DNA of 32,000 nt from Mucisphaera calidilacus (GCF_007748075.1 NZ_CP036280.1:420001-452000), one strand, 5' to 3'. Positions 890-19,107 are shown, counted from the stretch's first letter. Numbers and translations: made by a program. The notes: a model not told the origin generated them from the letters alone.

Positions 890-3800
890 TTATGGATGCG
901 ATGACGCCTCTTGCCAACGCCCGTAATGCGGATAATCCATCGGGCGAATCACCTTGCCGCCGATTCGCAAGGACGTAAAACGACTGGGAGGCAGCACGCC
1001 GGCCTCGGCCATCTCAAGACTGAGCCGCTCAGACCGTTCGGGCCTGATCTCCCGGGCCGCATCGATGACGTACAGCCAGTCGCTCGAAGGCTGCGCGGGC
1101 CTGAGTGCCTCAGCGAAGGAAAGGGCCGATTCTGCCAGCGAGGCCGTCGGGCTGACGTGCCGCTGAATCGACGTCGACAGCAGGCAGGCAAGCCGCAAAC
1201 GGCTAGGTTCGCCCCCACGAACGGGCTGATCCGGATCAGCAAGCCGATCTAGAAGCAGGGTTCCCAGCTGCTCCGTGGCAGCCGGAGGCAGAGCATGCAA
1301 CAGCAACTCGGGATCTGCGGGCAGCACGCGAGGGTGTGTGCTGTTGAGCAAACGCCCCAAACGCTCCTCCACCACCTCCCATTCGCCCCGAAGGGTCGCG
1401 AGCCGGGTCTCCAGACGCAGGAGTTCTGAGGCGGCCAACGAGGCAGATGCGATCTCGGTCCAGCGGCCGATCTGATCAAGCAGTTGCTGCTGCCTGTCCG
1501 GTGTCAAAGCGGCTGCATGATCAGAAAGCAGCCTAAGGAGGGTCGACGACGGCACATCGACCGGCGTAGGTTGCAGGATCATCCCCAAGTCATGGGTATC
1601 GATCGGCTCGGGCACAGAGATCACCCTCGGCGTCAACCCTGCCCGCTGACGCGCGAGTAACCAGCGTTTGAGTAATTCAGCCCGCTCGGGCCTGTTCAGC
1701 GGGAGGACCTTCAGCAGCTGAGCGATCCGAGCGTCATCCGGTGCGTTGCTCGCTCGCCCCAGCCATGCGGCCAGCGACTCGCCAGCCGCAGCATCCGGGG
1801 TTTCCAGCCTCGACGCCGTGGCAGCAAGCAACCGCAGGTCAAGCAGGTCCGGCTCGTCCTGCTGAGCGATGCGCGCGGTGAGTTCTTCCACGAGTTCTTG
1901 GGTCCGTCCCGCTGCAACGGCCGCGTCGGCCAGGCCCTCGATCAGCCCCGGGACATCGTTGCGGTCCGGCGTCGCCGTCGAGAGCCGCGCCTGGTACAGC
2001 CTGTAAGCAAAGGGCTGAGGCGCCAGCTCTTCCCAGAGTGTTCTGCGTTCAGAAAGTCGCTCCGCCACATCCTGCCGATAGCCCACGATGCCGCCCGGTG
2101 TGGGGGATGACCACATACGCGGGGTGTAGAACCGTCGTTCAAGCTGCGTCTGGTTCAGGTACTGCAGCAACCGCTGTTCCGCAGACTGATGCTGACCGAG
2201 CGACGCACGCAAGGGCAGCGCCTCGATCGCCCCGAGGGTGCGTTCGTCGATCGAGGCGATCTGAAGCGCTCGCTCAGGCGACCCGAGCTGTTGCAACGCC
2301 TGACTCAGCGGGCGGGCCGTCTGCTGCTGAATCACCGACCGGTCATCACGAAGCGGCCAGAGCACATCCGCCATCGCCGGGAACCGATGTGTCTGCATCA
2401 GCAGATCAACCAGCCAGTTGCGCACAACCGGTTCGCCGGACACGCGTGCAAAGGCCTCGAGTGCAAGCTCCGCAGCAGAGGTCTCCATGCCCACGCCAGC
2501 GGCGGCCATGCTCGCCATCAGCAGCTCGTTGACAGCCGCCAGCCCCTGAGCGCGTCGGAGCTCCAGTTGATCCAGCCAGTCGCCAACGTCTGCCCGCAGC
2601 AACAGCGGCTGAGCGGCTTCCGCCAACGCGACCTGATCGGTCGTCAGCGTTGTCTGTGTGGCGAGTTGCCGCATCGCGTCCCTGGCCAGTTGGCTCGCCC
2701 TCGTCAATCGCTCTCGCCCGCCCGCCGCATGACACGCCTGCGCATGGATCACCATCACTGCAGGCTGCTCGGGGTGAAGCCCCAGAAGCGTTCCGCTCAT
2801 GGCCATCGCCAGCTCGGCACCCGCCGGCTGCTCCGACCATCCGCCCCGGCTCAGCATTGTGTAGGGACGAAACTTGTCGAGGGTCGGGACAGGTGTCCGC
2901 TCCACCAGATCGCTGAGGGTGTCACGCAGCGCGGGTGTCGGCACGCCGGCGATCCCCGCCGCGACCGCACGCAGCAGAGACCACCGCTCGGACGGGTCGC
3001 GACGCTCCCAGGCAAGCTCAAGGATGGAGCCTGCCTGCTGCTGACCGAGCAGGTTGATCATCGCGACCAAACGATGCGCAGGCACATCGTCTCTCGTCAC
3101 CGCGTCGATCAACCACCCGGGCATCCTCTCATCACGACCGGCATCCACACTCTGCCACGAACGCGTACGAAGCCAGGCAAGCACCCACGAGGCTTCCTGC
3201 CCCTGTTCCGCGACGTGGCGCAGACGATCGATGACACTCCGCTGATCGGCAGGCTCCAACGCGTGCCATCCGAGCGCCATCAGTTGCCTGAACCGCGCCT
3301 CACTCCGCTGTGCCGCCCGGTCATCCAGGAGGCTCTCGAGACCCGACAGGGTTGCCCGGGCGGTCAGATCCCGCCGCTGCGTTGCCAGTCCCAGCAACGC
3401 GGCACGAACAGCGTGCTCGGTATCCCACGCCGTCGAATCTTCCGTGAGTCGCTCCAGTCGGCGCTCGGTCTCCGCCTTGTCACCCTGCCGGAGTGCCTGT
3501 TCCGATAGGAGCAGGGCGGTTTCGCGCGTGTCTTCCGCGAGTACTACCTCAGACGGATGGAAGGCATGACGCATCCGCTCGATCCGAGCGGTAACCGTTT
3601 CGCTCTCGGCGAACGTCGCGATCAGAACCTCATCGCCGGACCGCGACGCCTCGGCTTGGTTCATCGCCAGAGCGGCAAAGCGCAGGGCATCCGTCGCGTA
3701 CAGCCACCGGGGGAATCGGTCGGCGCGGTCACCCGCCTGGTACAAGCCGGTGCTCAGATCGCCAGCCTGTTCAGCGAGTCGTTGGAACTCGCGAAGCGCA

Positions 3801-6800
3801 CGAGCCCGGTCAGGTTCGTTCAGCGAACAGAAGATCGCCCCCTCGACACATGGCCCGAAATAGGTCTGAATCTCACTGAGATCGCCGGCCACCCGCCGAC
3901 GACGCGTGGAGAGCAGATTGGGTCGCGGCTCATCGCTCGCACGGATCGGCATCCGCGCGAGGAGCACACCGACAGCATCGATGAAGCAACGCTGGGCCTC
4001 CTCCCACCGCCCCAGCTGGGTGTAGAGCGAGCCTTGCCGGTAGAGGAGGCTGACGTCGTCGGGCCGGATCAGCAACAGTTCCTGAATCAGCCGCTGCGCC
4101 ACCTCGGGACGCAGATTCTTCTCGTAACGCTTCGCCACCTGGGGGACGACGTTGTGCTTCTCGCCGAACTGGATCGCACGCTGAAAAGCCCGGTCCGCCG
4201 CACGCTCGTCATGGCGATCCAGGAGCATGTCGCCCAGATCGATCATCACCTGAGGGGGTACGGCATACCCCGTCGCGATCAGGCTCTGTCCGTACACCGC
4301 CGCGAGCCGCGAACGCCCGAGCGCTCGTGACCGCTCGACGCCCTCGCGCAGGAGCGTCGCCGAGCGATCGCCCGCCGCGATCAGCATCGGATTGATCCAG
4401 GACAACGCTGACTCCGTGTCCCCCAACGCCTCGTGCAGATCAACGACCGATCTGAGCAGGTAGGCACGATCAGGATGCTTCGCGGCACGCACCGTCGCGT
4501 AGCGCAACGCCACCTCCAGCAGCGCAGGCGGCGCGTCGAGATTGAGCAGCCCGTCCACACCCACGAGAAACAGGTCATCTTCCTCGGCCTGATCGACGAT
4601 CCGCAGCAGACGCGTGATGGCCTGCTGGCCTCGGCCCGCATCCTGCATCGCCCGGCCCCACAGCAGCCACAGCTCCACCTGCTGCGGGTCTTTCAGGAGC
4701 GTCAGACGGTAACGGTCGGCAGCAGAACCACTGTCGCCAAGCATCGCAAGGATGCCGGCAGCCAGCTCGTTGAGCCGCGCGGGCGGCAGCTCGCCCAAGA
4801 CACCGATCTGCTCGATGGCGTGGCGGGCCGTGTAGAGATCGCCTCGCTCGGCCGCAATCACGGTGCGTTGCTGCCAGTAATCGAGCGCCCGATCAGGATC
4901 GATCGCGATGAGCTGACCGAGCATGTCGTCGGCCAGACGAAGCCGACCGGTCTTGAGATACAGCTCGATGAGCTTCTCTCGAGCCGCTTCGGCGTCGTCG
5001 CCATCATCGGCCGGTGCCAACAGCACTTCCGTGGCCGACACCGGGTCATCGATACGCGCATACAGCGCGACCAGCATGCTCCGGGCTGCACGGTCCTGTG
5101 GGTTGTCATGAACCCGCGACTCCATATCAACGGCCAGACTGCCCAGCTCGGCGGTCTGGGCGGACAGCTCGAGCAGCTGCTGCTCGGCACGCTGACGCAG
5201 GGCCGGCGTCAAGGCGTTCTCCCACAGGTCCAGCCAGATCGCGCGCGCCCGCTCCGGCTGATCGCGCTGCGTGTGCAGCCACGCCAGATACGGGCCCAGC
5301 CTTTGCGCCGAAGCTCGATCAGAACCCTGCCCGAGTCGTTCAGAGAGCAGATCGATGGCCCGGTCCGGCTGGCCGATCTCGATATAAGCATCAGCCAGTC
5401 GTCGCGCGTCGCCATCATCCCCGACCAGGCCCGCGAGTCCGTCAAGGGTCTCCAGCGCCCGGGCCAGACTGCTGTGCTGCGCCTGGTGAGTCGCCCGGGT
5501 CAGTCCCACCCGCAGGCGATCCTTATCGCTGCCCTGATCGGCCAGCAATAAGATCGCCTCGGCAGCATCGTGACAGCCCGAGGCGTCAGCGGCTTCGGCG
5601 CACCAGAGCCGCTCGGAGAGCCCGCGAGCCTGACGGGCCGCCTCAAGAAACGCCTCGGCAGCCAGGTCACGCCTGCCATCGAGTGCCAGCACCTGGCCGA
5701 GACAGGCCTGCCAGAGACTCGAGCCCTGCTCAAGGGCGAGTTGCTCGATCGCCCGGATCGCAGTCCCTCGCGCTTCGGGGGCGTTGGCGACCGCAAACAA
5801 CTCGCGACGGAGCATGTTCGCGTCGTGACGCAGAACGCCCTGATCCGAGGGCCGAGCTGCCTCCGCGATCAGATCAATGACCTCGCTCGACTGTCCGGTC
5901 TGTCGCAGCAATGTGATCAGCGGCCAGAAGCGCTCAGACGGGATCGGACGCTGAACCAGCCAGTGCTTGATCAGTTCCCCTTCACGCCCCGACTCAACGG
6001 CGACCTGAAACTGCATCAGCGCAACAGACTGACGATCACGACGCCGCTCAGCGTGCTGCTCCGCGCGACGCAGCACCTCCATCGCCACGCTCGGGTTGCC
6101 GGCCCGACGCTCAACCTCCGCGAGCGTCATCAGATCCTGCGCCCCGGGTGTTTCCAGATCGTTCAGCAGGCCGATGGCACGGCCGTGATGGCCACGAAAG
6201 GCCAGGTAATGACCGACCCAGCGACGACCCGCCTCGTCGGGCAAGGTGATCGCGTCCTCCGCGGGATAAGACTGCGTTTCCGGCGACAACGCATACAGGT
6301 GCAGGAGCAGAGCCGTCCGCTCCTCCGGCGCTGCTTTCGCCAAGGCCTCCTCAAGGACCATGCCCGCCTCTTCAGGACGACCCGTTGCCTGAAGATGCCG
6401 CGCGAGGATGGTCAACTCAGCCACACCCGCCTCGCCAAGCCGACGGGCTTCCAGAGCGAGATCGATGCATCGCCCGGACAACCCGGCCTCGTCGGCCAGC
6501 GCGATGGCGATGTGCCGCTCTCCCGAAACCACCAGGCGCACGATCTGCTCATCGAGATCCAGATCATTCTCCAGCGAATCGATCAGCACCTGCTCCGCGC
6601 GTTCAAGAGTCGCCTCGGCGCGAGCACCCTCAGGCATCGAGTCAGCGATTACGCCCGATGTCAACATGCAGCAAATCAACGCCGACGGCACAACGCTGCC
6701 AGCCCTCTCACGCGCAACGAGTGAACGCAGCCTGCCCGGGAGGCTGAACCGGCGTATCGCCAACTCGCTCAGAACACCCAGCCACGCGAGAACCATCAAC

Positions 6801-9121
6801 CACAGCGTCGGATCCACGACACGCCATGGCGTGGGCGCGACGTCTGCCGAGGCCGGCGACGTGATGACCTGTTCGTGGGCCATCCTGCCGGGATGCTCCT
6901 CCATCCACAGACCCGCCACACCCAGCGGCTCCGCGCCCGGGGTCAGGGCTTCGAGCCTGAACGAACCGGTACGCCCGACCAGCAGGCGGCCGCTCCAGCG
7001 TCCGGGGCTCATCACATCCGGGATAGTCTGGCTGATGATCCGGCCCTCCCGATCCAGGCACCGCAGGATCAACGCGTCGTCGGCCGGCAGTGGTTTACCC
7101 CCGGTCCACCTGAGGTCACAGGACAGCCCCAACTCGACGCGTGTCGTATCGATGGCGATGCGCCGCTGCAGCTGCGGGGCCGCGAGCGAACTCATCCATT
7201 GACGCAGCCAGCGAGCCGTCTCGTCACGCTCATAGACGGAGTTGGCCAGCGGTCCGGTCAGCGATCCGGCCCAGACACCGGCACGCCCTCGCCCGTAACG
7301 CCAGTGCACCGCGAGCGGTTGATGACCGTCGATCGTCGCGCTGATGTGCCCCGTCGGCTTCTTCTCAAGACGCATCGCGTCCTCAGGATTAACCGGGGCC
7401 GTCAAGCCGATCGGCCTGCTGCCGCTGCCTCGAAACTGTGCCTGACTCTCTGATCCGCCTGGCGGGCTCTGCATCTGCTCGTCGATCTGCTTGAGGACGA
7501 TCTCGGGCAGGCGGAACCGGTCGGGTGCCTGGTAGGCGTGGCCGCCTCCCCACTGCGCGAGCGAGGTCAGGAACTGCGAGTGCTGCGCGGGACCGACAAG
7601 GACCGTCGACGTCGTGATCCCCGCCCGCCGCATCCGCTCGATCTTCTCGCGGAACGGCCCGGTCTCCACACCGCCATCCGTCAGGATCAGGACGTGCTTG
7701 AAACGCGTGCGCGTGTTCAGCAACGCGTAGTAAGCCTCGTCGACCGCGGGCAGGATGATCGTCCCGCCCCCGGGCGTCAGACGGTGAAGCCCACGCTTGA
7801 TCTCGATCTGATTCGACGCCGGCTGAAGCGGTGCGGCCCAACGCCTGGAGCCGTAAAACTCGACGATCCCGACACGGTCATGAGGCATCAGGCGACGGAT
7901 GGCGAACTCCGCAACCTGCTTGGCCAGTGGCATCCGAGCGCCACCCATACTCCCGCTGGTGTCAATGATGATGACAAGGGAAACACTCGGATCACGCTGC
8001 TCGATCGTCTGACGGTCGTAGGCCGGCAGCACCCCGGCCAGCGGGTCACGGCGTCCCGGCAGACCCTCCGGCCCGGCCAGCGCCAGCAGCCCCACGCCGT
8101 CACGCGCCGCTTCGGCCAGAACCGCCTGCGTCTGAGCACCCTGCCCGCTCAGCACAACGACAAGCTGTACCTGCTTCAGCGACGACGCGGTCAGGCCCTC
8201 TGCCCGCCTGCCCGTGACAAGCGCCGAGGCGCCCCAAAGCGAGCGCAGCCGGTCGACGCTGTCGGCGATGGCCTCCGCCTGATCGGCATGACCGACAACC
8301 GAGATCCGCATCGGCTCGAGTACCACCATCGCAGCGCGGGCTTCTCGCTGGATGTTGCCCCGCACGTCGACGTGCTCCGCGGCCAGCACATACAACCCCG
8401 GCCGTTCCGGTGCCGTCAGTCGAACCGGGAACGAGGCTCGTTCAGGCACCAGAGTCACAGAACGCCGCGTCTCATCGACGCCCTCCACACGCACAAGAAG
8501 CTCATCCCCCTCCGACACACCGCCATCAAACATGGCGCTGACCACAATCTCGGAACCGGGCAGGGCGTTGTTCGGCGTATCGAGAACCAGCCTCAATGCC
8601 TCTCCTGCAGAATCCCCATACCCACGCAATCGGATACCCTCGGCCGGCAGGCGATGGAGCGACAGATCAAGACCCGCTATCCAGTTCTCGGGCATCCAGA
8701 GTTCGGACGCGCCCGGCGGCAGCAACGCCGATGCAACCGCAAGCACGTCGCCAGGACGTTCACGCCCGAAGGCGGTTGTCCCGTCATCACCCCCAGGCGG
8801 GCGGCTCCAGTTCCAGCGCGAAGCAGGCTCAATCCTTAAGTCTCCCTCCGCGACAGTAACCCTGATCGACGGCTCTGAGGGAATCTCGGCCGCGTCAGAG
8901 CCCGTCGTGAGAATGACCGCAGAGGAAACAGCCGTCTCCGCAGCAAGCCACCTCGGCCCCGCCGCCGCGAGCGCTAACGCGAGGATCACCACGCATCGAA
9001 CGATCAGCAGCAGAACCGGCCTGATCCGCCAGCGTTGCGATGACCCGCGTCGCCACCACCACGCAGCAGGCAAGGCGCTCAGCAGCAGCAGACACAACCA
9101 GACGGGGGCAGCCAACCACAT
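890..9121 (-). CDS. Giant (2743 aa) membrane protein: BatA_N-like double-TM anchor, VWA domain with complete MIDAS, third TM helix, then ~1950-aa TPR-like helical repeat region
   Basis: Uninterrupted 8.2-kb ORF. N-terminus MWLAAPVWLCLLLLSALPAAWWWRR...VLLLIVRCVVILALALAAAGP gives two TM helices. The VWA domain reads VSLVIIIDTSGSMGG (DTSGS at 7949-7963)...TPGGGT...VLILTDGG. A TM helix TLWLMVLAWLGVLSELAIRRF lies at ~6746-6816. The remainder is Leu/Ala/Arg/Glu-rich with TPR-type segments, e.g. YLKTGRLRLADDMLGQLIAIDPDRALDYW. The start lies 1 nt after the stop of the upstream gene (TGAGATG). Confidence 0.9.
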   Translation of the reverse strand: MWLAAPVWLCLLLLSALPAAWWWRRGSSQRWRIRPVLLLIVRCVVILALALAAAGPRWLAAETAVSSAVILTTGSDAAEIPSEPSIRVTVAEGDLRIEPASRWNWSRPPGGDDGTTAFGRERPGDVLAVASALLPPGASELWMPENWIAGLDLSLHRLPAEGIRLRGYGDSAGEALRLVLDTPNNALPGSEIVVSAMFDGGVSEGDELLVRVEGVDETRRSVTLVPERASFPVRLTAPERPGLYVLAAEHVDVRGNIQREARAAMVVLEPMRISVVGHADQAEAIADSVDRLRSLWGASALVTGRRAEGLTASSLKQVQLVVVLSGQGAQTQAVLAEAARDGVGLLALAGPEGLPGRRDPLAGVLPAYDRQTIEQRDPSVSLVIIIDTSGSMGGARMPLAKQVAEFAIRRLMPHDRVGIVEFYGSRRWAAPLQPASNQIEIKRGLHRLTPGGGTIILPAVDEAYYALLNTRTRFKHVLILTDGGVETGPFREKIERMRRAGITTSTVLVGPAQHSQFLTSLAQWGGGHAYQAPDRFRLPEIVLKQIDEQMQSPPGGSESQAQFRGSGSRPIGLTAPVNPEDAMRLEKKPTGHISATIDGHQPLAVHWRYGRGRAGVWAGSLTGPLANSVYERDETARWLRQWMSSLAAPQLQRRIAIDTTRVELGLSCDLRWTGGKPLPADDALILRCLDREGRIISQTIPDVMSPGRWSGRLLVGRTGSFRLEALTPGAEPLGVAGLWMEEHPGRMAHEQVITSPASADVAPTPWRVVDPTLWLMVLAWLGVLSELAIRRFSLPGRLRSLVARERAGSVVPSALICCMLTSGVIADSMPEGARAEATLERAEQVLIDSLENDLDLDEQIVRLVVSGERHIAIALADEAGLSGRCIDLALEARRLGEAGVAELTILARHLQATGRPEEAGMVLEEALAKAAPEERTALLLHLYALSPETQSYPAEDAITLPDEAGRRWVGHYLAFRGHHGRAIGLLNDLETPGAQDLMTLAEVERRAGNPSVAMEVLRRAEQHAERRRDRQSVALMQFQVAVESGREGELIKHWLVQRPIPSERFWPLITLLRQTGQSSEVIDLIAEAARPSDQGVLRHDANMLRRELFAVANAPEARGTAIRAIEQLALEQGSSLWQACLGQVLALDGRRDLAAEAFLEAARQARGLSERLWCAEAADASGCHDAAEAILLLADQGSDKDRLRVGLTRATHQAQHSSLARALETLDGLAGLVGDDGDARRLADAYIEIGQPDRAIDLLSERLGQGSDRASAQRLGPYLAWLHTQRDQPERARAIWLDLWENALTPALRQRAEQQLLELSAQTAELGSLAVDMESRVHDNPQDRAARSMLVALYARIDDPVSATEVLLAPADDGDDAEAAREKLIELYLKTGRLRLADDMLGQLIAIDPDRALDYWQQRTVIAAERGDLYTARHAIEQIGVLGELPPARLNELAAGILAMLGDSGSAADRYRLTLLKDPQQVELWLLWGRAMQDAGRGQQAITRLLRIVDQAEEDDLFLVGVDGLLNLDAPPALLEVALRYATVRAAKHPDRAYLLRSVVDLHEALGDTESALSWINPMLIAAGDRSATLLREGVERSRALGRSRLAAVYGQSLIATGYAVPPQVMIDLGDMLLDRHDERAADRAFQRAIQFGEKHNVVPQVAKRYEKNLRPEVAQRLIQELLLIRPDDVSLLYRQGSLYTQLGRWEEAQRCFIDAVGVLLARMPIRASDEPRPNLLSTRRRRVAGDLSEIQTYFGPCVEGAIFCSLNEPDRARALREFQRLAEQAGDLSTGLYQAGDRADRFPRWLYATDALRFAALAMNQAEASRSGDEVLIATFAESETVTARIERMRHAFHPSEVVLAEDTRETALLLSEQALRQGDKAETERRLERLTEDSTAWDTEHAVRAALLGLATQRRDLTARATLSGLESLLDDRAAQRSEARFRQLMALGWHALEPADQRSVIDRLRHVAEQGQEASWVLAWLRTRSWQSVDAGRDERMPGWLIDAVTRDDVPAHRLVAMINLLGQQQAGSILELAWERRDPSERWSLLRAVAAGIAGVPTPALRDTLSDLVERTPVPTLDKFRPYTMLSRGGWSEQPAGAELAMAMSGTLLGLHPEQPAVMVIHAQACHAAGGRERLTRASQLARDAMRQLATQTTLTTDQVALAEAAQPLLLRADVGDWLDQLELRRAQGLAAVNELLMASMAAAGVGMETSAAELALEAFARVSGEPVVRNWLVDLLMQTHRFPAMADVLWPLRDDRSVIQQQTARPLSQALQQLGSPERALQIASIDERTLGAIEALPLRASLGQHQSAEQRLLQYLNQTQLERRFYTPRMWSSPTPGGIVGYRQDVAERLSERRTLWEELAPQPFAYRLYQARLSTATPDRNDVPGLIEGLADAAVAAGRTQELVEELTARIAQQDEPDLLDLRLLAATASRLETPDAAAGESLAAWLGRASNAPDDARIAQLLKVLPLNRPERAELLKRWLLARQRAGLTPRVISVPEPIDTHDLGMILQPTPVDVPSSTLLRLLSDHAAALTPDRQQQLLDQIGRWTEIASASLAASELLRLETRLATLRGEWEVVEERLGRLLNSTHPRVLPADPELLLHALPPAATEQLGTLLLDRLADPDQPVRGGEPSRLRLACLLSTSIQRHVSPTASLAESALSFAEALRPAQPSSDWLYVIDAAREIRPERSERLSLEMAEAGVLPPSRFTSLRIGGKVIRPMDYPHYGRWQEASSHP

Positions 9122-9122
9122 C

Positions 9123-10805
9123 TCAGGCGATCCGCCCTTTCTCGTAGAGCCACCACCCGACCGCAGCCAGAGCCAGCGTGATCGCCACCAACCATGGCCG
9201 TGTACTCAGGCTCCAGCCCCGATCCTCCGGAGTCGTCGCGAAAGCAGAGTCGGACGCACGATCGAGCAGATTCGAGACCGCCGGTGAACCGGGAGCCGTC
9301 AACGCGTTATGACCTCGGGCGACGGGCTGCTCCCGCCACCAGACCGCATCATCGTGCGCACGCTCTGTCGAGAGTGTGACTGGCTCCGGCCCCAGTTCCA
9401 GCAGATCGGAGACCGCACGGCTGAGCATGACCGCGAAACCACCACTGGCGTAAGCGGAGGTCTCCGCCGAGAACCACGCCTCGTGCAGCATCAGGCCTGG
9501 CGACGAATCTCCCGTGCCCGAAACCCACGCGAGCGGCACAGCGTCCAGCATGACCCCGGCCTGCTCAGGCGTCGCTCCATCAGCAGCGGTCAGGCTCGCG
9601 GGCAGCCAGACATCATCGAAGTCGAGGTCTTCGGCCCAGCCCACGCCCAACGCCCTGATCAGACCCGTGGATTCCTGGTCTGACGATGACACGGGCACAA
9701 CCTCGATCCGTGCACGCCTTGCCGCAGGATCATCACCGCCCGTGCTCAGCCGAGTCTGACCGTTGCCGACTGCCCGATCCGTTTCCTCAACGACACACCC
9801 CGCCGCAAGCAGCGCAAGACGCAGCGCGTCGGGCACATCCGGCCCAGGCGAAGCGGTGATCACCGGTCTGTTTGGCAGAGTGAACGCAAGTGTGTTGTCC
9901 GCTTCCACGCCATCGCCGGGCATCTCAACCCTCACTGCAAGACCCTGCCCGACCGCGGGTAGTTCGAGTTCGCGCGTGAAGACAGCACCACCCTCCGACG
10001 CGGCAATGACCTCCTCCAGCAACACCGCGCCATCAGCAACATCGGTCACCGTCAGACGCAGCGAGCCCGGATCCGTCAGCCACGAGCCGACACGCACAGC
10101 AAGCGTCCCCCGCTGGCCAAGAGGTCGATCAGCCTGCCACCGGGCGCTGATAATCGCTGCGTTGCTGCGTCGCTCGCCGTAGGGACGCACCGTCACGACT
10201 CCCGACAACGCCAGGCTCGATGCGGCATCACGCCAGCGATCCCCGGCGGGTGTCACCACGACGATCTGTGCATCCATGCCGAGCATCCGCCGGACACGTT
10301 CGGCCAGACGCAGCGAGGGACCCGCCGGCGACACAGAGTCGGCGGGAAGTGAACGCAGGCGACGCAGCGCACGCCCGTCCACCTCGCCGGGTCCTCGGAT
10401 CAGCCGAGGCGTCGGTGCCGCCGCGATCATCGCCAACGCGCTGTTATGGGTCGGCATGGACGCCAGGACAGCCTCTTCAAGACCTCCCGCCGCGTCAGCG
10501 GGAACACCGTTGTCAATGACGATCACCACCGGCCGGGTCTCAGAACCGGACCAGATCGGGCCGGCCAACGCCAGCCCGCTGAGCAGCAGTGCGGCCAGCA
10601 GCAGCGCAAGACTCAGCCACTGCGCCGGGCGACCCATCAGAGACCGGCCGTCGACCGCGGCCGACGCCTCAGCCCAGAAGAGTGTGGTCGCCACACGAAG
10701 ACGACGAGGACGCGGCCGCAGCAGGTGCAACACCATCAGCAGGCTTGCCGCTGCCGCCACGAAGCTCAGCACCACGCCCCACGGCACGCCGGTCCACAGC
10801 CACAT
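9123..10805 (-). CDS. BatA_N (N-terminal double-transmembrane domain) protein with a C-terminal TM anchor and a VWA-like core lacking MIDAS
   Basis: N-terminus VVLSFVAAAASLLMVLHLLRPRPRRLRVATTLFW...WLSLALLLAALLLSGLALAGPIW matches the aerotolerance-regulator N-terminal / TIGR02226-type pattern. RPVVIVIDNGV sits where a VWA DxSxS would be. The C-terminal TM is WLVAITLALAAVGWWLY. Its ATG overlaps the DUF58 stop by 1 nt (TGATG at 10803-10807). Confidence 0.8.
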   Translation of the reverse strand: MWLWTGVPWGVVLSFVAAAASLLMVLHLLRPRPRRLRVATTLFWAEASAAVDGRSLMGRPAQWLSLALLLAALLLSGLALAGPIWSGSETRPVVIVIDNGVPADAAGGLEEAVLASMPTHNSALAMIAAAPTPRLIRGPGEVDGRALRRLRSLPADSVSPAGPSLRLAERVRRMLGMDAQIVVVTPAGDRWRDAASSLALSGVVTVRPYGERRSNAAIISARWQADRPLGQRGTLAVRVGSWLTDPGSLRLTVTDVADGAVLLEEVIAASEGGAVFTRELELPAVGQGLAVRVEMPGDGVEADNTLAFTLPNRPVITASPGPDVPDALRLALLAAGCVVEETDRAVGNGQTRLSTGGDDPAARRARIEVVPVSSSDQESTGLIRALGVGWAEDLDFDDVWLPASLTAADGATPEQAGVMLDAVPLAWVSGTGDSSPGLMLHEAWFSAETSAYASGGFAVMLSRAVSDLLELGPEPVTLSTERAHDDAVWWREQPVARGHNALTAPGSPAVSNLLDRASDSAFATTPEDRGWSLSTRPWLVAITLALAAVGWWLYEKGRIA

Positions 10806-11722
10806 CAGCGCACTCCCGCAGCAACAGCGCCGAATTGGAGTCTGCCCGGGCCAGCCAGACGCCCCAGCTGCGTCAGCACCGATCGGTCCGCGTCCAGCGT
10901 GATACGCCTGCCCATGACCGCGCGAGCCGCCGCCTGCATCGAGCGATCGAATCGGCCGTAGGCATCGCGGTAGGCACGCATCATCACCGCCGAGGCATGA
11001 ACGTACAGACGCTCCGCGGTCTCGCAGTCCTCGACCTCGACCGATCCCTCAACACCCGGGTCACGATCCGAAGCCCGTGTCAGCTGGATCAACGCGGGCA
11101 GGTGCCCCGTCTCCTTGATCGCCGGCACCCAGTCGTCAACCCCCGCGGGATCAAAGAAATCCGAGATCACCACCATCAGCAAACGCGGGTGCCCCGCCCG
11201 CCGAACCGCATCGAACACCGGTGAAAGCCGCGTCTGGGCACCCTGCTTCGCTCGCCAGCCCGAGACGCTGTGGGCGAGATCCGAGAGACGCGCACGCGAG
11301 TTCGCGGCCACCGGTGCGCCAAGCAGTCTGCCATCGGCGAAGGGCTGGACATGCACTCGGTTGAGTTCTTCAAGCCCCGCTGCCGCGATGGCCACAGCGG
11401 CCTGCTGACCCGCGAGCAGGCGCGGAGAAGCCTCGAAACCCATCGAAGCGCTGCAGTCCAGCAGGATCAGAACCCCCAGCTGGTGCGACTCGTCGTACAG
11501 GCGGATGAACAGGCGACCGCTGCGCTGATACAGCGGCCAGTCGATCCGCCGCGGGTCGTCGCCCGTCACGTACGGCCGGTGATCGCGGTAGTCCAGGCCC
11601 AGCCCCTCCATCGGCGCCGGCGCCTCCGCCTTGCGCGGCAGAGGCCGCAGACCCAGCGCACCCAGGCGCAGCCTCCGACAGGCGCTGAGGAAACGCTCAT
11701 CGATCACGCCGGAATCAGGCAT
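10805..11722 (-). CDS. DUF58 domain protein (VWA-like partner of MoxR ATPases)
   Basis: GLDYRDHRPYVTGDDPRRIDWPLYQRSGRLFIRLYDESHQLGVLILLDCSASMGF is the DUF58 signature. I prefer the ATG at 11722 (MPDSGVIDERFL...), which overlaps the MoxR stop as ATGCCTGA (8 nt). The ORF-track start at 11800 would overlap MoxR by 86 nt. Confidence 0.88.
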   Translation of the reverse strand: MPDSGVIDERFLSACRRLRLGALGLRPLPRKAEAPAPMEGLGLDYRDHRPYVTGDDPRRIDWPLYQRSGRLFIRLYDESHQLGVLILLDCSASMGFEASPRLLAGQQAAVAIAAAGLEELNRVHVQPFADGRLLGAPVAANSRARLSDLAHSVSGWRAKQGAQTRLSPVFDAVRRAGHPRLLMVVISDFFDPAGVDDWVPAIKETGHLPALIQLTRASDRDPGVEGSVEVEDCETAERLYVHASAVMMRAYRDAYGRFDRSMQAAARAVMGRRITLDADRSVLTQLGRLAGPGRLQFGAVAAGVR

Positions 11723-12776
11723 CGAACGTGCTCTCGGAAACCGTCTCCAAAATCTCCCCGACCAGACCGTCGACGTCGTGGCCGTCGGCGAGAGCCTCAA
11801 AACGCAGGACCATCCGGTGCCTGAGCACCGGCAACGCGATCCGGCGCAGGTCGTGCACGCTCAACGTGAATCGGTTCTCCAGCAACGCCTGCACCTTGCC
11901 CATCAGCAACAACGCCTGCCCCGCTCGGGGGCTGGCCCCCATGCTGACGTAACGGTTGACGCGATCCGTCGCATAACGCGAGCCGGGCTGGGTCGCCATC
12001 ACCAGCCGCGTCGCGTAACTCAGGATCTGATCGCTGGCCGCAACCTGCCGCACCGTCCGCCGCATCTCCAGCAACCGCTCTCCCGAGCAGACGTGCCGGA
12101 TCTCGGGCATCGCCTCGCCGGTGGTCCGCTGCAGGATCGTCGCGTACTCGCCCTCCTGCGGGTAGTCGACCAGCAGCTTGACCATGAAACGATCGAGCTG
12201 GGCCTCGGGCAACGGGTACGTGCCCTCCTGCTCGATGGGGTTTTGTGTCGCCAGAACCATGAAGGGGTTGGGCAGGTCGATCGTGTCCTTGCCCAGCGAG
12301 ACCTGACGCTCCTGCATCGCCTGCAGCAGGGCCGACTGCGTCTTGGGCGTCGCACGGTTGATCTCGTCCGCCAGCAACAGGTGGGTCACGATCGGCCCCG
12401 GCTCCAGCTGGAGCTCGAGACCACCGCCCGGCTTCTCGATGATCGCGTGCGTGCCCGTGAGATCCGTAGGCATCAGGTCGGGCGTGAACTGAACCCGCGC
12501 AAAATCAAGGTCCACCACCTCACTCAGCGTCCGCACCAGCAGCGTCTTGCCCAGGCCCGGCACACCCTCGATCAGGATGTGGCCATCGGCCATCAGCGTC
12601 GAGAGCACCAGGCGCACAAGGTCCGCATGCCCGACAAACACCTTGCCGATCTCCGCTTCGATCGCCGTAAACGACGCGATGAACTGATCGACCTGCTCGG
12701 TGGCAAGCCGGGTGGCCTCGTCGGTGGTTGGTGAGAGATCCGATGAAGAAGGGCTACTGCTCATGGTCACAATCAT
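11715..12776 (-). CDS. MoxR-family AAA+ ATPase
   Basis: Walker A is GHILIEGVPGLGKTLL (~12543-12566). Walker B and sensor read HLLLADEINRATPKTQSALLQAMQERQVS. The downstream LPEAQLDRFMVKL and ASPRAGQALL motifs are typical of the MoxR/RavA-like family. The gene is followed by DUF58 in the canonical order. Confidence 0.95.
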   Translation of the reverse strand: MIVTMSSSPSSSDLSPTTDEATRLATEQVDQFIASFTAIEAEIGKVFVGHADLVRLVLSTLMADGHILIEGVPGLGKTLLVRTLSEVVDLDFARVQFTPDLMPTDLTGTHAIIEKPGGGLELQLEPGPIVTHLLLADEINRATPKTQSALLQAMQERQVSLGKDTIDLPNPFMVLATQNPIEQEGTYPLPEAQLDRFMVKLLVDYPQEGEYATILQRTTGEAMPEIRHVCSGERLLEMRRTVRQVAASDQILSYATRLVMATQPGSRYATDRVNRYVSMGASPRAGQALLLMGKVQALLENRFTLSVHDLRRIALPVLRHRMVLRFEALADGHDVDGLVGEILETVSESTFDA

Positions 12777-12787
12777 ATCTCAGGGGA

Positions 12788-14221
12788 TTACAGGCCGGAC
12801 GACGCACGCAGGGCCTCCAGGTATTCAAGCATGAAACGTGTCTCTCGCTCGAGTGGCGGCTTTCCGGGCGAGTCCTCCGGGCCCTCGGTAACCGCCATCG
12901 AAGCCGGATCGACACGCGACGGATCCAGCGGAGCCGCTTTCGCCTGCCGGTAAGTCCGCTTCACCGGGCCGGGTCGGGCTTGCCCCTCAACCAGCTCAGG
13001 CGTCGGCACGCCCAGCAGCATGGCAGATGTTCCTCGCGATTTTTTAACGGGCGTCGGGCCGCCACGCCCTGCGCCAGGCGGACCCTTGGGGCCGCTGATA
13101 CCCAGTTGCCGCGAGGGCGCAACATTCCGGTCCCTTGCCGACGGCTGCGTCCCCCCACGCTGCTGCTGATCCTGATCCGGGTCCTGATCCTCCTCGCCCG
13201 AATCGGCATCATCCAGCGCGGACACGTCGCCTGGCGTCGTCCGGATGCCATTCTTCCACGCGTGTGTCACACCAAACGACGACCCCTTGCTCTGACCACC
13301 CCCGGACGCCGCCGCACCCGCCGAGGCCGATCCCGCCGCCGGCCTGCGTTCCCGAGACGAGGCGGAGGACGAACGCTCCTGCTGCCGGTCAGCAGCACGC
13401 CGCGACCCCGGCGCGCTCGGGTCCGGGCTGCCCGTCGATGACGATGGACGAGCCGATGAATGAGCACCGGACCCGCCGGTCCGACCCACACCCGATGACG
13501 AGGCCTCCGCACGCTCATCGGCAGACATCACCGAAGACGACCCACGATCTCGCCGAGTCCCCGATGCCACACTCGGTTCCGCGGCCTGCCGCGCGGAACG
13601 AACCGGATCCAACCCCGCCCGTGGCAACGCCGATTCACCGGCCACCACCACAGCTCCGGACGTGTCGACAGCCGCAGAGGAGGAAACACCCTCCGGGACC
13701 CTTGAAGGCAAGGCCAGCAGCACCAGCGTCAACGCTAGCGCACCCAGCCCGAATCGCCAGGGGACCTTCAGCGGTTTCGGCCTGAGCCGAAAATCAGACA
13801 GACACACGAGTGTCTCCAGACCCCTCGCGACCGTCGCACGCTCGAAAAGCTGAAACGAACCTTCTCGCTCGAACTGCAGCGCACTGGCAAGGAGGTTGTG
13901 TGTCTCGGCCTGCGCGTCGACGCGCTCCGCGACCTCCGCAGCACACGGCCGACGCCTTGAAGCCAGCAGGCACCAGGCGATCCAGAACGTGACGACGATC
14001 ACAATCAGCAGCACACCAACCAGCGGGTCGGACGGTACCGCCGCGAGCGGCAGCGCCAGCAGCGGGACCACACTCGTCCGAACGATTCGGGCGACAGACC
14101 GTTGACGCTGATAGACCTCGCGCCACGGCTCCAGTGACGACTCGATCTCGCCGGGCAGTCGTCGATCGTGCGGAGCACTCAGGGACGGGTTGTCAGTTCG
14201 TTCAACGTCCATCGTTTCCAT
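12788..14221 (-). CDS. Membrane protein of unknown function with a long Ser/Gly/Ala/Arg/Asp-rich low-complexity C-terminal region
   Basis: TM helices are VVPLLALPLAAV...VGVLLIVIVVTFWIAWCLLA and FGLGALALTLVLLALP. About 270 aa of low complexity follow (…SSSGVGRTGGSGAHSSARPSSSTGSPDPS…GEEDQDPDQDQQQRGG…). It shares strand and spacing with the operon: its stop lies 11 nt before the MoxR ATG. The ATG at 14221 overlaps the upstream gene by 43 nt, so the exact start is uncertain. Confidence 0.65.
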   Translation of the reverse strand: METMDVERTDNPSLSAPHDRRLPGEIESSLEPWREVYQRQRSVARIVRTSVVPLLALPLAAVPSDPLVGVLLIVIVVTFWIAWCLLASRRRPCAAEVAERVDAQAETHNLLASALQFEREGSFQLFERATVARGLETLVCLSDFRLRPKPLKVPWRFGLGALALTLVLLALPSRVPEGVSSSAAVDTSGAVVVAGESALPRAGLDPVRSARQAAEPSVASGTRRDRGSSSVMSADERAEASSSGVGRTGGSGAHSSARPSSSTGSPDPSAPGSRRAADRQQERSSSASSRERRPAAGSASAGAAASGGGQSKGSSFGVTHAWKNGIRTTPGDVSALDDADSGEEDQDPDQDQQQRGGTQPSARDRNVAPSRQLGISGPKGPPGAGRGGPTPVKKSRGTSAMLLGVPTPELVEGQARPGPVKRTYRQAKAAPLDPSRVDPASMAVTEGPEDSPGKPPLERETRFMLEYLEALRASSGL

Positions 14222-16446
14222 CCCAGGCAGGACCCGTCAGCGTCCTCCCACACGGCAACCAACGCAGACACCCTCGAATCAATCGGATAAGGCATGTCCC
14301 CGGCAGACACGCCGTCCGACCTGTTCTCACGCCCGGTCGGAACGTTCCATCGCAGCACCGTTTCAGTCGACAAGGCCGAACCCGATTCTAGCGAGTCAGC
14401 CAGCGCGTACGTCTGCTCCGCACGCACCGGCCAGTCATGAAACGCCATCGATGACGCGCCCGGCACAAAAACCACCTGCTCCACGAGCAATAGCCTCAGC
14501 CTACCCCTGTCCGGTCGCGCTGACCGATCCAGTTCGACCTCAAAATCAAGCGCCTCCGGCCTGCTCGCGGCCTTGACCGCCAGCCAACTCAGGTCGTCCT
14601 GCTCCTGAGGCGCCTCGGCCCGCACCACTTCCGCAACGAGCTGTTCCAGCCACGCCTCACCACCGCGGTCTGCCGAGATCGCCACGGGTCGGCCATTGAT
14701 GAATACCTGGGGTCCCTCGGCATCACCCGGACGATCCGCACGACCAACCGACGCCGGACTAATCAGTGGCGGCTCGAAGTGATAAGCCACCAGTCCGAAC
14801 TGCGAGAACATCTGGCTCAGCGCCGACCAGCCCGCGAGCACCGGCTCTGACTCCGCCGCAGCCGCATCGATGAACAACTCAATCAGAGGCCGTGCCGACA
14901 CGGACAGCCGCTGCGCCGACGCCGGTCGCCTCCCGATGGTCTCGACCTGACCCTCGAGCAGCATCCGCATCTGGTGCGCGGTCAGACGCTCGTGCAACGC
15001 CGGGTCACCCTTCAGCCGCCGGAGCCCGTTGTACGCGCCGATCGGCGCTTCATCGGCCACCGCGCTCTGCGCGTAGCGCGACCACGCACGGACCGGCTGA
15101 TCGGTCACCTCGTACAGGCGGCCCAACCACAGGTTGATAAAGGGGTCCTGTGGCAGGCCGAACCGTGCCGCGATGAGCTGACGCCGGGCGCTCTCGTAAT
15201 CCCGACGCAGCAGAGCGATCAGCCCTCGTCGGGCCAGCACGTGGTGTACCGCGACACCGTCCAGATCGTCCCTCGTCCACGCCGCCGCCACCTCCAGCGC
15301 AGCCTCCGCCACGTCGTAAGCTCGTTCGGTCTCTCGGTCGAGTGCGATCGCGTCATCCGCCGCACGCACCAGCGCCATCGCCCGCCCGTTCACGGGCAGC
15401 GACGAGCCGAGCAGCGTGAAGGCACGCCGCGCAGCCGCAACATCCATCGGCCTCGCGTCGAGACGCATCCGGACCAGGGTCCTGCACGCCTGCTTGACCT
15501 CCGACTCGGGCAACCCGTTGCGGATCACCGCCTCGACCGCATCCGCATCGGCCCGCGATCGTGCCGCAAGATAAGCCTGCACAGCACCCGACGTCTCCGC
15601 CCGCGCACGCGGGATCAGAACCAGACGCTGGTTCGGCACGTCGATCACCAGGTCCATCTTCAGCAGCAGATCGGTGCCGAGATTGATGTCCGGCTTCGGG
15701 TCAGGCAGCACCGAGAAATCACTCGGCTCCAGCACCACGTAACGCGACAGGTTGATCCCCCCGACACTGACACGCTCCAGCTGACCATCCGGAACCCCCA
15801 GACGCTCCGCCGTGTTCACGTCGATGCGGCTGTTCCGTTCGCCGCTCGCCAACCGGATACGCAGTGACTCATCCCCGGGCCCCCGCGCCGTGATCCAGTA
15901 GCCGTAGCCCCGCGCCTCGAAATCGATCGCCGCGGAGGCCGCTCCCGCCTGCAAAGCACGCTCGAACACCTCAGCGCCCTGCCCGTGGACGATCTCCCCG
16001 GACACCAGCGAGAGACTTGTTACGCCACGAAACGCCGGCAGGCCCAGCACCGCCGCCGCGGGTATCTCGTCAAGCTCATGAGCGTTCTCGCTGCTGAAGG
16101 TCTCAATGGGCTCGAGCTCCACGGGAACCGCCGTGGTCGACGGCCACGAGAGATTCTGGCCCGGAAACGAGATCGCGACCTCCCCGGTGCCCGTCATCCC
16201 CAACGCCGCCGCGATCCGAGGATGGATCAACGCCGGCGCCCGCACGCCCACGTCAATCACCGCGTGGCTAGGGATACGCACGTCATCGACCCGCAATTCC
16301 ACCAGCACGCAGCCCATGCCGTCGATGGTCCTGATCACCAGACGCTCGGCCTGGGCCAACGCGGCCGACGGCAACACGCACAACACCAGACACACCACTC
16401 GCCACGCACACCACCGCCCGCTCCGAGATAGACGCTGCTTTGCCAT
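14179..16446 (-). CDS. Secreted protein: tandem retropepsin-like (clan AA) lobes with degenerate catalytic motifs, helical repeat region, and a C-terminal domain of unknown function
   Basis: I prefer the ATG at 16446 (MAKQRLSRSGRWCAWRVVCLVLCVLPSAALAQA/ERL, a signal peptide). Lobe 1 reads HAVIDVGVRAPALIHPRIAAALGM...AAVLGLPAF. Lobe 2 reads LRIRLASGERNSRIDVNTAERLGV...INLGTDLLLKMDLVIDVPNQRLVLI. Both follow the bacterial Asp_protease_2 pattern xxDTGAxxxxI...ILGxDxL, but with DVG and ASG in place of DTG. The middle is Ala/Arg-rich and helical. Confidence 0.75.
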   Translation of the reverse strand: MAKQRLSRSGRWCAWRVVCLVLCVLPSAALAQAERLVIRTIDGMGCVLVELRVDDVRIPSHAVIDVGVRAPALIHPRIAAALGMTGTGEVAISFPGQNLSWPSTTAVPVELEPIETFSSENAHELDEIPAAAVLGLPAFRGVTSLSLVSGEIVHGQGAEVFERALQAGAASAAIDFEARGYGYWITARGPGDESLRIRLASGERNSRIDVNTAERLGVPDGQLERVSVGGINLSRYVVLEPSDFSVLPDPKPDINLGTDLLLKMDLVIDVPNQRLVLIPRARAETSGAVQAYLAARSRADADAVEAVIRNGLPESEVKQACRTLVRMRLDARPMDVAAARRAFTLLGSSLPVNGRAMALVRAADDAIALDRETERAYDVAEAALEVAAAWTRDDLDGVAVHHVLARRGLIALLRRDYESARRQLIAARFGLPQDPFINLWLGRLYEVTDQPVRAWSRYAQSAVADEAPIGAYNGLRRLKGDPALHERLTAHQMRMLLEGQVETIGRRPASAQRLSVSARPLIELFIDAAAAESEPVLAGWSALSQMFSQFGLVAYHFEPPLISPASVGRADRPGDAEGPQVFINGRPVAISADRGGEAWLEQLVAEVVRAEAPQEQDDLSWLAVKAASRPEALDFEVELDRSARPDRGRLRLLLVEQVVFVPGASSMAFHDWPVRAEQTYALADSLESGSALSTETVLRWNVPTGRENRSDGVSAGDMPYPIDSRVSALVAVWEDADGSCLGWKRWTLNELTTRP

Positions 16447-16659
16447 CGACAGCCAGTCTAAACGTGTTCGTCGAACCGTTCTGCCGCACCCAGCCAAACG
16501 CCCGCAGACAACGAAAAACCGGCAGACTTTAACCCCTTGCGCTTTGCCTGCCTTCACTCACGCGAACAGCCCGAACGCACGGCAACGGATGTGTTCAACG
16601 TTTCTTGACTATAGGACCTTCCCCACCGATCTACGGACCTGTATACGGGAGCACGAGAA
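16447..16659. promoter_or_regulatory. Divergent intergenic region between the MoxR/VWA operon and the c-di-GMP cassette
   Basis: It separates two head-to-head operons. A TTGACT -35-like hexamer lies at 16605-16610. The direct repeat GGACCT occurs at 16614-16619 and 16635-16640 (21-bp spacing). GGGAG lies upstream of the ATG at 16660. No experimentally defined promoter consensus was applied. Confidence 0.35.
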
Positions 16660-18213: not shown

Positions 18214-18252
18214 CCACGGCGAACACAACCCTCCATCAACAGGAGCTACGCC

Positions 18253-18594: not shown

Positions 18595-18634
18595 AGAACA
18601 CCATCAATCCCGCACACAACAGAGAGGAACCACC

Positions 18635-19009: not shown

Positions 19010-19107
19010 ATCTCTGAATCAACCAATTCGCGTAGGTCAACTCGCGACACGGACGCTTTGTTGCCGATGACGTAACGGTCGTTGCTTAGGGGCAATGGAG
19101 CAGCGTG

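Follow-up and report, generated by a model that had tools for sequence, protein, structure and literature searches.

A conserved six-gene MoxR-DUF58-BatA/VWA cassette in Mucisphaera calidilacus and its predicted place in the cell envelope

Results

Organisation of the six-gene locus

A stretch of 32,000 nucleotides (nt) from the genome of Mucisphaera calidilacus (Phycisphaerae, Planctomycetota; GCF_007748075.1, NZ_CP036280.1:420001-452000), called the window below, was analysed, and positions are counted from its first letter. Six consecutive in-frame genes were found on the minus strand between 890 and 16446, where the open reading frame (ORF) listing and the translations agreed with each other and with an initial annotation of this DNA. 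In the direction of transcription these are g1 (14179-16446, 755 amino acids (aa)), g2 (12788-14221, 477 aa), the MoxR gene g3 (11715-12776, 353 aa), the DUF58 gene g4 (10805-11722, 305 aa), the BatA-type gene g5 (9123-10805, 560 aa), and g6 (890-9121), which encodes a giant fusion protein. The GC content at third codon positions was 0.70-0.86 in each of the six genes, in support of their being coding.

The five junctions, read directly off the sequence, were those given by the initial annotation: a 43-nt overlap of g1 and g2 (14179-14221), an 11-nt gap between g2 and g3 (12777-12787), an 8-nt overlap ATGCCTGA of the MoxR and DUF58 genes (11715-11722), a 1-nt overlap TGATG of g4 and g5 (10805), and a 1-nt gap TGAGATG between g5 and g6 (9122). 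The 43-nt overlap holds for the listed ORF of g2 and becomes 34 nt with the NCBI start, the second ATG at 14212, from which g2 has 474 aa. The length of 792 aa first given for g1 is that of its maximal GTG ORF, which extends to 16557; from the ATG at 16446 g1 has 755 aa, the same as the NCBI protein. The packing had also been taken to imply stoichiometric co-expression. Overlaps and short gaps are evidence of co-transcription and of translational coupling; they do not establish stoichiometry.

A scan of 18 kb for sigma-70-like promoters found no promoter-like site inside the six-gene block, and seven terminator-like sites were observed in the block against 8.3 expected in shuffled sequence. 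All four sigma-70-like matches of the scan were located in an AT-rich stretch at 780-917, past the g6 stop. A gene for a secreted protein (MMMLTHTHRNRLTLGSLLLALACLLPSQSAEA...) follows on the minus strand (1 to about 760) and runs off the end of the window. The AT-rich stretch with its promoter matches, and then a new secreted-protein gene, suggests that the operon ends at g6. At the other end, the 213 nt upstream of g1 (16447-16659) are common to g1 and a divergent gene and presumably contain the promoter of the operon; the scan gave no sigma-70-like site there. No riboswitch or other RNA element 5' of g1 was matched by Rfam, and there was no tRNA in the window. The six-gene block is very probably one operon. 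The divergent gene (16660-18213, plus strand) encodes a response-regulator/GGDEF/HD-GYP protein and is followed by a gene for a GAF-PAS-PAS histidine kinase (19105-21102, plus strand). The GGDEF/HD-GYP gene is not kept beside the cassette in related loci.

Conservation of the cassette

Eighty-five related loci were collected, five of them reached through g1 and 80 through the motif near the C-terminus of g2. The 80 came from a metagenome scan with the pattern GRGGP[TS]xxKK and were annotated by profiles built from the window and its orthologues; the counts that follow take in only loci with enough flank. Gene g1 was located upstream of g2 in 43/43 loci, and g2 was followed by MoxR in 68/71. 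DUF58, g5, the N-terminal part of g6 and the C-terminal part of g6 were in place in 46/49, 36/39, 30/30 and 25/25 loci, respectively. Gene order is kept in dozens of loci and the two leading genes stay in synteny with the MoxR core, so that the loss of synteny named at the outset as a refutation was not seen. Across these loci the identity to g1 of the window drops to about 20%, and the flanking genes differ from locus to locus. The cassette was broken after g2 or after DUF58 in three loci (L098, L164 and L143; loci are given by our own numbers). In L004, g2 was cut short by the gene caller and a complete g2 ORF is present.

Orthologous loci at 37-58% identity keep the same junction geometry. 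The 8-nt overlap of MoxR and DUF58 was found in 4/4 orthologous loci, the g5/g6 gap was 1-3 nt in 4/4, and the g1/g2 junction was a 4-7 nt overlap in three. The tight packing is therefore not due to chance, and the synteny counts together with the conserved junction geometry indicate that the cassette is a conserved functional unit.

The cassette occurs in Planctomycetota, namely in Mucisphaera and a few named relatives, the latter being metagenome-assembled genomes (MAGs) labelled Planctomycetota. A word-indexed search returned seven g1 homologues, and all five contigs that were looked up carry g1, g2 and then the other genes of the cassette, with the exception of MoxR and DUF58 in one of them (L002). 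A profile search with a 28-member g1 alignment returned the original seven proteins and one fragment and nothing more, so the taxonomic range of g1 rests on the metagenomic loci and a few named clusters. Ten clusters of the g2 family were looked up; two of them were named, both as Planctomycetota/Planctomycetes bacterium MAGs.

Further genes were seen next to the cassette in some of the loci. A conserved gene for a secreted protein of ~350 aa lies just upstream of g1, on the same strand, in 17 loci (L102:5409-6497, L118:5996-7072, L150:4963-6081 and 14 others). This gene, which the window lacks, is possibly one more member of the cassette; its product had no Pfam match, and most of the 17 loci have g6 split into two genes. 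Two close relatives have a CsgG-family gene upstream of g1 and in the same orientation (L004:8022-9089 and L005:8034-9077), and two more distant ones have there a divergent gene for a 355-aa PEP-CTERM-domain protein (L002:8795-9862 and L003:8749-9816).

A secreted protein with two predicted enzyme-like folds

The product of g1 is identical to an NCBI hypothetical protein of M. calidilacus and had no match in Pfam or NCBIfam. It opens with a Sec-type signal peptide, MAKQRLSRSGRWCAWRVVCLVLCVLPSAALAQA (aa 1-31). The AlphaFold2 model, with a predicted local distance difference test (pLDDT) score of 73.7, shows a beta-rich N-terminal domain, helices resembling tetratricopeptide repeats (TPR), an alpha/beta domain and a beta-sandwich. 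The architecture was read as a pepsin-like bilobal domain (aa ~34-280), TPR-like helices (aa ~287-497) and a thioredoxin fold with a beta-sandwich (aa ~520-750).

The pepsin-like domain (15607..16347, minus strand) was read from sequence motifs and from Foldseek as two retropepsin-like lobes. In the Foldseek search of PDB, renin, plasmepsins and other pepsin-family proteases came first (E 9e-6 to 1e-4, probability 1.0) at low TM-scores, and the sequence carries duplicated, retropepsin-like D-x-G ... h-h-G-x-x-h motifs. The domain is assigned to the pepsin fold with moderate confidence. Lobe 1 reads D65-V-G67; the family-wide pattern at this site is D/E-[LIVFY]-[G/E/D] and never D-T/S-G. Lobe 2 reads N-S in the clade of the window and D-T/S in most relatives. 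A catalytic D-T/S-G in both lobes was not found in g1. A canonical aspartic protease is unlikely, because lobe 1 has D-V-G and lobe 2 has N-S.

The C-terminal region (14197..14889, minus strand) is predicted by the structure model and Foldseek to be an HBP35-like thioredoxin fold followed by an Ig-like beta-sandwich. A separate model of the last 251 aa reached a pLDDT of 81.5 and a predicted TM-score (pTM) of 0.84, and its best match was HBP35 of Porphyromonas gingivalis (5y1a; E 3.4e-7, TM-score 0.51 over 275 columns). Weak Pfam matches to Omp28, DSBA and DUF1223 were obtained for some members of the g1 family. No redox-active CxxC was found in g1: the window reads LIELFIDAAAAESEP, with AAAESEP in the place of the CxxC, and close homologues have no Cys pair there.

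As modelled, g1 thus consists of two enzyme folds without catalytic motifs, joined by TPRs. Its C-terminal 250 aa share with HBP35 the order of thioredoxin fold and beta-sandwich, and its N-terminal 250 aa resemble the bilobal fold of pepsin-family aspartic proteases (E~1e-5). It differs from both in having neither CxxC nor D-T/S-G in either lobe, at ~10% identity, and in the TPRs between the modules. The model, Foldseek and the motif columns bear out the initial view of g1 as a secreted pseudo-protease/helical-repeat protein, with moderate confidence for the pepsin fold.

A membrane protein from a family linked to MoxR

The product of g2 (12788..14221, minus strand), which had no match in Pfam or NCBIfam, is predicted from hydropathy, the positive-inside rule and homologue alignments to consist of a transmembrane (TM) hairpin, a helical loop of ~65 aa, a third TM segment and a tail rich in Ser, Ala, Gly and Pro. 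The positive-inside prediction places the loop that joins TM2 to TM3 (65 aa) in the cytoplasm and the 300-aa tail in the periplasm. The tail had been described as of low complexity; at its end lies a nearly invariant motif of ~70 aa (aa 352-418, 12968..13168, minus strand). This motif, QQQRGGxQPxxRDRNxAPSRxLxISGxxGPPGxGRGGPTPxKKSRGT..LGVPxPxxVxG, follows an acidic stretch and stood out as invariant or near-invariant columns in alignments of 11 and 37 sequences.

A HMMER profile search recovered 1,046 representatives of the g2 family at E<=1e-3 and at least 243 (clusters at 50% identity) at E<=1e-30; most are ~500 aa long and match end to end. The family is much bigger by this search than by the word-indexed one.

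The N-terminal membrane module of g2 (aa 1-171, 13709..14221, minus strand; motif VAExLDxRxxTxNRIATAL.F) is common to MoxR-linked proteins of other phyla. The g1 and g2 profiles were compared with an out-group of at least 80 MoxR loci from many phyla, all at <=56% identity. The g1 profile had no match in the 80 loci, and g1 is the truly lineage-specific part of the cassette. The g2 profile matched out-group loci through its N-terminal 170 residues only. With an iterated hidden Markov model of the g2 N-terminus, 16 of the 80 loci were among the matches listed. The matching ORF was directly upstream of MoxR in 13 of them (L006, L008, L014, L021, L023, L025, L036, L050, L052, L054, L059, L070 and L083) and elsewhere in the locus in L039, L048 and L074. 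Such proteins were found next to MoxR in Verrucomicrobiota, Acidobacteriota, Chloroflexota, Myxococcota, Actinomycetota and Paenibacillus, and the groups represented are Limisphaerales, Blastocatellia, Anaerolineae and other Chloroflexota, Kofleriaceae, Acidimicrobiia, Binatia and Paenibacillus.

Across at least six phyla the module consists of the TM hairpin, a cytoplasmic helix [VA]A[RE]x[ILV][DE]x6[ND][RA][LI]x[TS]A[LV] and the third TM segment, and in the proteins of other phyla it leads into a long tail of the coiled-coil or low-complexity type. These proteins were matched by no model in Pfam or NCBIfam, and the g2 family profile had no sequence relatives in PDB. The initial annotation had called g2 an atypical leading gene. 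With its N-terminal module adjoining MoxR in one fifth of these unrelated loci, g2 is instead a divergent member of a common, un-named component. A relationship to DUF4175/TIGR02302-type proteins, considered as a lead, was dropped, as neither was among the Pfam and NCBIfam matches of g2 or of its distant relatives.

The MoxR, DUF58 and BatA-type proteins

The g3 product matched Pfam AAA_3 at 5.4e-60 (201 bits, cut-off 27) and AAA_lid_2 at 8e-14, and carries the Walker A motif GVPGLGKT and the Walker B motif LLADEINR. It also matched Pfam bpMoxR at 8.5e-14. The g4 product, encoded immediately 3' of moxR, matched DUF58 at 1.8e-23 (83 bits, cut-off 23.4). It is a VWA-like partner of MoxR and carries DCSAS (DxSxS), an intact metal-ion-dependent adhesion site (MIDAS). 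Hydropathy showed no hydrophobic segments in g3 or g4, and both are predicted to be cytoplasmic because they have no TM segment.

The g5 product (9123..10805, minus strand) has a double-TM N-terminus (aa 11-29 and 64-82) with an Arg-rich cytoplasmic loop, followed by a periplasmic VWA-like domain. A C-terminal hydrophobic segment, read from the sequence and below the hydropathy threshold, is likely. The direct Pfam match to BatA was below the cut-off (E 0.002, 19 bits, cut-off 25.9). The g5 profile matched proteins with significant BatA (4e-11) and VWA_2 (3e-10) domains, and the g5 orthologue in L002 matched VWA_2 at 3e-12 in the same position. The MIDAS of g5 is decayed (DNGVP), and g5-like proteins of other phyla have DASASM. 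No sequence relatives of g5 were found in PDB. Both g5 and g6 have a BatA_N-like double-TM N-terminus with an Arg-rich loop. When g5 was compared by BLASTP with the N-terminal 840 aa of g6, no significant similarity was seen; the architecture is common to the two, and recent paralogy is therefore not claimed. With AAA_3 at 5e-60, DUF58 at 2e-23 and the BatA_N-type and VWA proteins, the MoxR-DUF58-BatA_N-VWA core that had been recognised at the outset is real.

A giant protein made of a VWA part and a TPR part

The N-terminal part of g6 (g6N; aa 1-~800, 6722..9121, minus strand) is a separate gene in many relatives. It has a double-TM anchor (aa 1-19 and 36-54), a VWA domain (aa 382-541), a GATase1-like region and a third TM segment (TM3, aa 771-789) followed by RRFSLPGRLR. 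The VWA domain matched Pfam VWA at 5e-15 and VWA_2 at 2e-13, its MIDAS is intact (DTSGS...GGT...TDGG), and its closest PDB sequence is BchD (1e-5). The g6N profile aligns over the VWA and GATase1_like (PF07090) domains of proteins encoded in L025 and L036. The C-terminal part (g6C; aa ~826-2743, 893..6646, minus strand), a helical/TPR region of ~1,900 aa, gave several Pfam TPR matches at aa 990-1717 and a match to PEP_TPR_lipo at 1e-6, and is predicted to be periplasmic.

The two parts are separate genes in 14 of the 25 informative relatives and are fused in the clade of the window, in agreement with the initial reading of g6 as a fusion. In the split loci g6N ends in a TM segment and RRR, and 10 of the 11 g6C genes inspected open with a classic Sec signal peptide. 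At the fusion point in the window, TM3 is followed by RRFSLPGRLRSLVARER and a hydrophobic segment (TM4, aa 807-825, 6647..6703, minus strand), from which the g6C profile is colinear. From the comparison with split loci and this colinearity, TM4 is read as the vestigial signal peptide of a once separate TPR protein. The ~1,900-aa TPR region is most likely periplasmic, because the separate g6C has a Sec signal peptide and the profile is colinear. In Acidimicrobiia g5 and g6N are fused. The fusions of g5 with g6N and of g6N with g6C imply physical association.

Predicted topology of the cassette proteins

By hydropathy and the positive-inside rule, the Arg-rich BatA_N hairpin loops of g5 and g6 are cytoplasmic and the large domains that follow them are periplasmic. 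This agrees with experiment on the BatA-type protein BB0173 of Borrelia, which was located in the inner membrane with its VWA domain in the periplasm (PMC5700661). MoxR and DUF58 are the only members predicted to be cytoplasmic. The g1 protein, the tail of g2, both VWA domains (in g5 and g6) and the giant TPR region probably face the periplasm. On the membrane proteins, cytoplasmic handles of any size would be limited to the conserved helical loop in g2 and the Arg-rich loops of the BatA_N hairpins in g5 and g6.

Comparison with known systems

The cassette had been put forward as a candidate undescribed machine. This was overstated, as a five-gene core of a g2-like protein, MoxR, DUF58, a BatA_N+VWA protein and a VWA+GATase1-like protein is widespread. 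Among the out-group matches listed, the core was found in Paenibacillus, Chloroflexota, Myxococcales, Dormibacterota, Limisphaerales and Acidimicrobiia. In Paenibacillus sp. L3-i20 (L025), Chloroflexota (L036) and Myxococcales (L020) it has the gene order g2N-MoxR-DUF58-g5-g6N of the cassette, with homology at the profile level; the BatA_N+VWA_2 protein (600-690 aa) corresponds to g5 and the VWA+GATase1_like protein (920-1,020 aa) to g6N. These loci differ from the cassette in that no g1 and no giant TPR gene were found with the window-based profiles, the tails of the g2-like proteins are longer and without GRGGPTPxKK, and the MIDAS of the g5-like proteins is intact. Specific to the planctomycete family are g1, the conserved motif in the tail of g2 and the giant TPR protein of the periplasm. 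The cassette belongs with the widespread MoxR-DUF58-BatA/VWA envelope operons, of which it is an enlarged form peculiar to its lineage, and is not a new kind of system.

The operon RL3499-RL3502 of Rhizobium leguminosarum, of the MoxR/DUF58/BatA_N type, was reportedly described by Vanderlinde et al. in 2011, with mutants said to have defects in envelope integrity and morphology. It resembles the cassette as a broadly conserved MoxR-DUF58-membrane-protein operon tied to the envelope. It has four genes only, and the likeness is one of description and not of sequence.

The Bat (Bacteroides aerotolerance) operons and their homologues in spirochaetes (moxR, DUF58, batA-batE; Borrelia bb0170-bb0176; Leptospira batABD) share with the cassette a MoxR-proper gene followed by DUF58, inner-membrane proteins with a BatA_N double-TM anchor and periplasmic VWA/MIDAS domains, a TPR partner, and lineage-dependent fusions (PMC5700661, PMC3557215). 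A periplasmic complex has been proposed for the Bat proteins (PMC3557215). The cassette differs in its TPR partner of ~1,900 aa, compared with a few hundred aa in Bat, in one VWA domain with a decayed MIDAS, in the GATase1-like region after the second VWA domain, and in its two leading genes, of which g1 does not occur in Bat operons and g2 encodes a membrane protein whose tail is of low complexity. No model match to BatD was found in the six proteins at E<=0.01, and no SH3 domain was detected in them by the Pfam scan. Arc2 of P. aeruginosa (PA4317-PA4323; MoxR and VWA proteins), which protects against the pore-forming toxin ColA (PMC8926400), has an envelope-protective phenotype and likewise combines a MoxR-like ATPase with a VWA protein in an uncharacterised cluster. 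It belongs to another phylum, no giant TPR protein or pseudo-protease has been described in it, and it is likened to the cassette by description and not by protein homology. A full-text literature search returned Bat/MoxR/VWA operons in Bacteroidota, spirochaetes and Pseudomonas and no description of the planctomycete cassette, which is not mentioned in the species description of Mucisphaera either (PMC8882080).

Other features of the window

Whatever the orientation of the genes, the plus strand has a negative GC skew as far as about 24.7 kb and a positive one from there on, with the switch at about 24680-24710. On the coding strand, the skew at third codon positions was +0.19 to +0.38 in the six operon genes, -0.37 to -0.56 in the plus-strand genes at 16660-24680, and -0.12 to -0.48 in the minus-strand genes at 24710-31957. 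The change is an origin-polarity switch in a 30-nt gap between convergent genes and possibly marks an inversion breakpoint. Beyond it, a GH10 xylanase-family protein with a C-terminal type I dockerin (4e-6) is encoded at 24710-27304 (minus strand) and is adjoined by a right-handed beta-helix protein at 27135-28637 (minus strand); as listed, the two ORFs overlap by ~170 nt.

Discussion

The reading that we favour, and to which we give an even chance of being right, is that the six genes form a single conserved cassette for the assembly or remodelling of a periplasmic scaffold, driven by ATP through MoxR and DUF58 and serving envelope maintenance. A MoxR hexamer, acting through the VWA-like adaptor DUF58, would spend ATP in engaging the g2 loop and the BatA_N loops. 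The periplasmic scaffold assembled or remodelled in this way would be anchored in the inner membrane, with g1, the TPR giant, the tail of g2 and the VWA domains of g5 and g6 as its components. Partner proteins, or the conserved Gly/Pro/Arg-rich end of the tail of g2, may be held there by the MIDAS-bearing g6 VWA domain, by the TPR array and by clefts of g1 that bind substrates without catalysis. By analogy, the physiological role may be envelope maintenance or stress protection and not a specific enzymatic pathway.

Several points weigh against this reading. One related locus (L002, 10001-22493; 37% identity in g1) has g1, g2, g5, with an intact-looking VWA_2 domain, and g6 with no MoxR or DUF58 between them; the periplasmic set can therefore be encoded without an adjacent ATPase. 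Deletion of bat genes in Leptospira gave no phenotype (PMC3557215). The pepsin-fold matches of g1 have TM-scores of 0.24-0.30 at a root-mean-square deviation of about 12 A, in a region with pLDDT of 60-85. The role of TM4, and with it the placing of the TPR region in the periplasm where g6 is fused, is a prediction drawn from the split relatives, and the operon, the complex and its role are likewise predicted from the genes. How a cytoplasmic AAA+ ATPase would be coupled to periplasmic domains is puzzling for the whole class.

A surface, matrix or adhesion apparatus, in which the VWA/MIDAS and TPR giant would serve attachment or the export or organisation of extracellular polymers and MoxR would mature an adhesin, is unlikely. 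VWA/MIDAS domains are classic adhesion modules. In its favour, the related protein BB0172 of Borrelia reportedly binds integrin and is located in the outer membrane (PMC5700661), the growth of Mucisphaera takes the form of a viscous colloid (PMC8882080), and CsgG-family and PEP-CTERM-domain genes lie upstream in L004 and L005 and in L002 and L003, respectively. These neighbours are, however, not conserved in the family and are absent from the window, TM segments at both ends are predicted to anchor g5 and g6N in the inner membrane, and the cassette includes no secretion-system or outer-membrane component.

The proposed scaffold assembly can also be taken further, to an ATP-powered trans-membrane coupling device specific to Planctomycetota, in which MoxR and DUF58 would pull on the g2 and BatA_N loops and so pass conformational work through the inner membrane to a periplasmic megacomplex. 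Two VWA anchors, the ~1,900-aa TPR scaffold and g1 clamping the invariant tip of the g2 tail would make up this megacomplex. We consider this extension rather improbable.

Two further explanations are very unlikely. The first is an NTP-dependent conflict or defence system akin to the MoxR-vWA-beta-propeller ternary systems, with the VWA and TPR proteins as sensors of invaders and g1 as effector protease. The bpMoxR match of g3 would fit such a system, and giant TPR/VWA proteins and proteases are reported to be frequent in conflict systems (PMC7159879). AAA_3 is, however, by far the better match to g3 (5e-60 vs 8.5e-14), Pfam and NCBIfam showed no beta-propeller or effector domain in the six proteins, and g1 is without the catalytic motifs of a protease. 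PADLOC gave one marginal match, to the P-loop, and was otherwise negative. The block is stable, single-copy and strictly conserved in order, with its large domains predicted to be periplasmic, and the variable, island-like setting in which defence loci typically lie was largely not seen.

The second, with an equally slim probability, is a cofactor-insertion or enzyme-activation chaperone for one metalloenzyme, like CbbQ-CbbO, NorQ-NorD, CoxD-CoxE or BchI-BchD. Characterised pairs of MoxR and VWA proteins do act in this way (PMC8926400), and the PDB sequence closest to the g6 VWA domain is that of the Mg-chelatase subunit BchD. Against this, no candidate target enzyme was found in the cassette or its conserved flanks, the VWA proteins are membrane-anchored with periplasmic domains, and the GATase1-like, thioredoxin-like and pepsin-like modules are without signs of catalysis. 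That g1 and g2 are mere neighbours of an unrelated MoxR core, packed tightly by genome compaction, is scarcely credible in spite of a coding density of 91.7% (PMC8882080) and the three loci that break the cassette, being effectively refuted by the synteny of g1-g2 (43/43) and MoxR (68/71) down to about 20% g1 identity amid unrelated flanks and by the conserved junction geometry.

Conclusions

MoxR-DUF58-BatA/VWA operons occur in many bacterial phyla and have been connected with aerotolerance, virulence, the integrity of the envelope and defence against toxins that damage membranes. The cassette of M. calidilacus is an uncharacterised variant of this known class and not a new principle, and it constrains the class in several ways. 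Nearly all of its mass is predicted to be periplasmic and its ATPase cytoplasmic, which narrows the coupling to the g2 loop and the BatA_N loops. The fusions and splits of g5+g6N and g6N+g6C show which components probably touch, and the N-terminus of g2 is a recurrent, previously unmodelled partner of MoxR-DUF58 across phyla. M. calidilacus strain Pan265 is available in pure culture, so these predictions are testable in principle. If the coupling device were true, the cassette would be an envelope-organising machine without a described counterpart and would give a first mechanistic handle on the MoxR-DUF58-BatA class.

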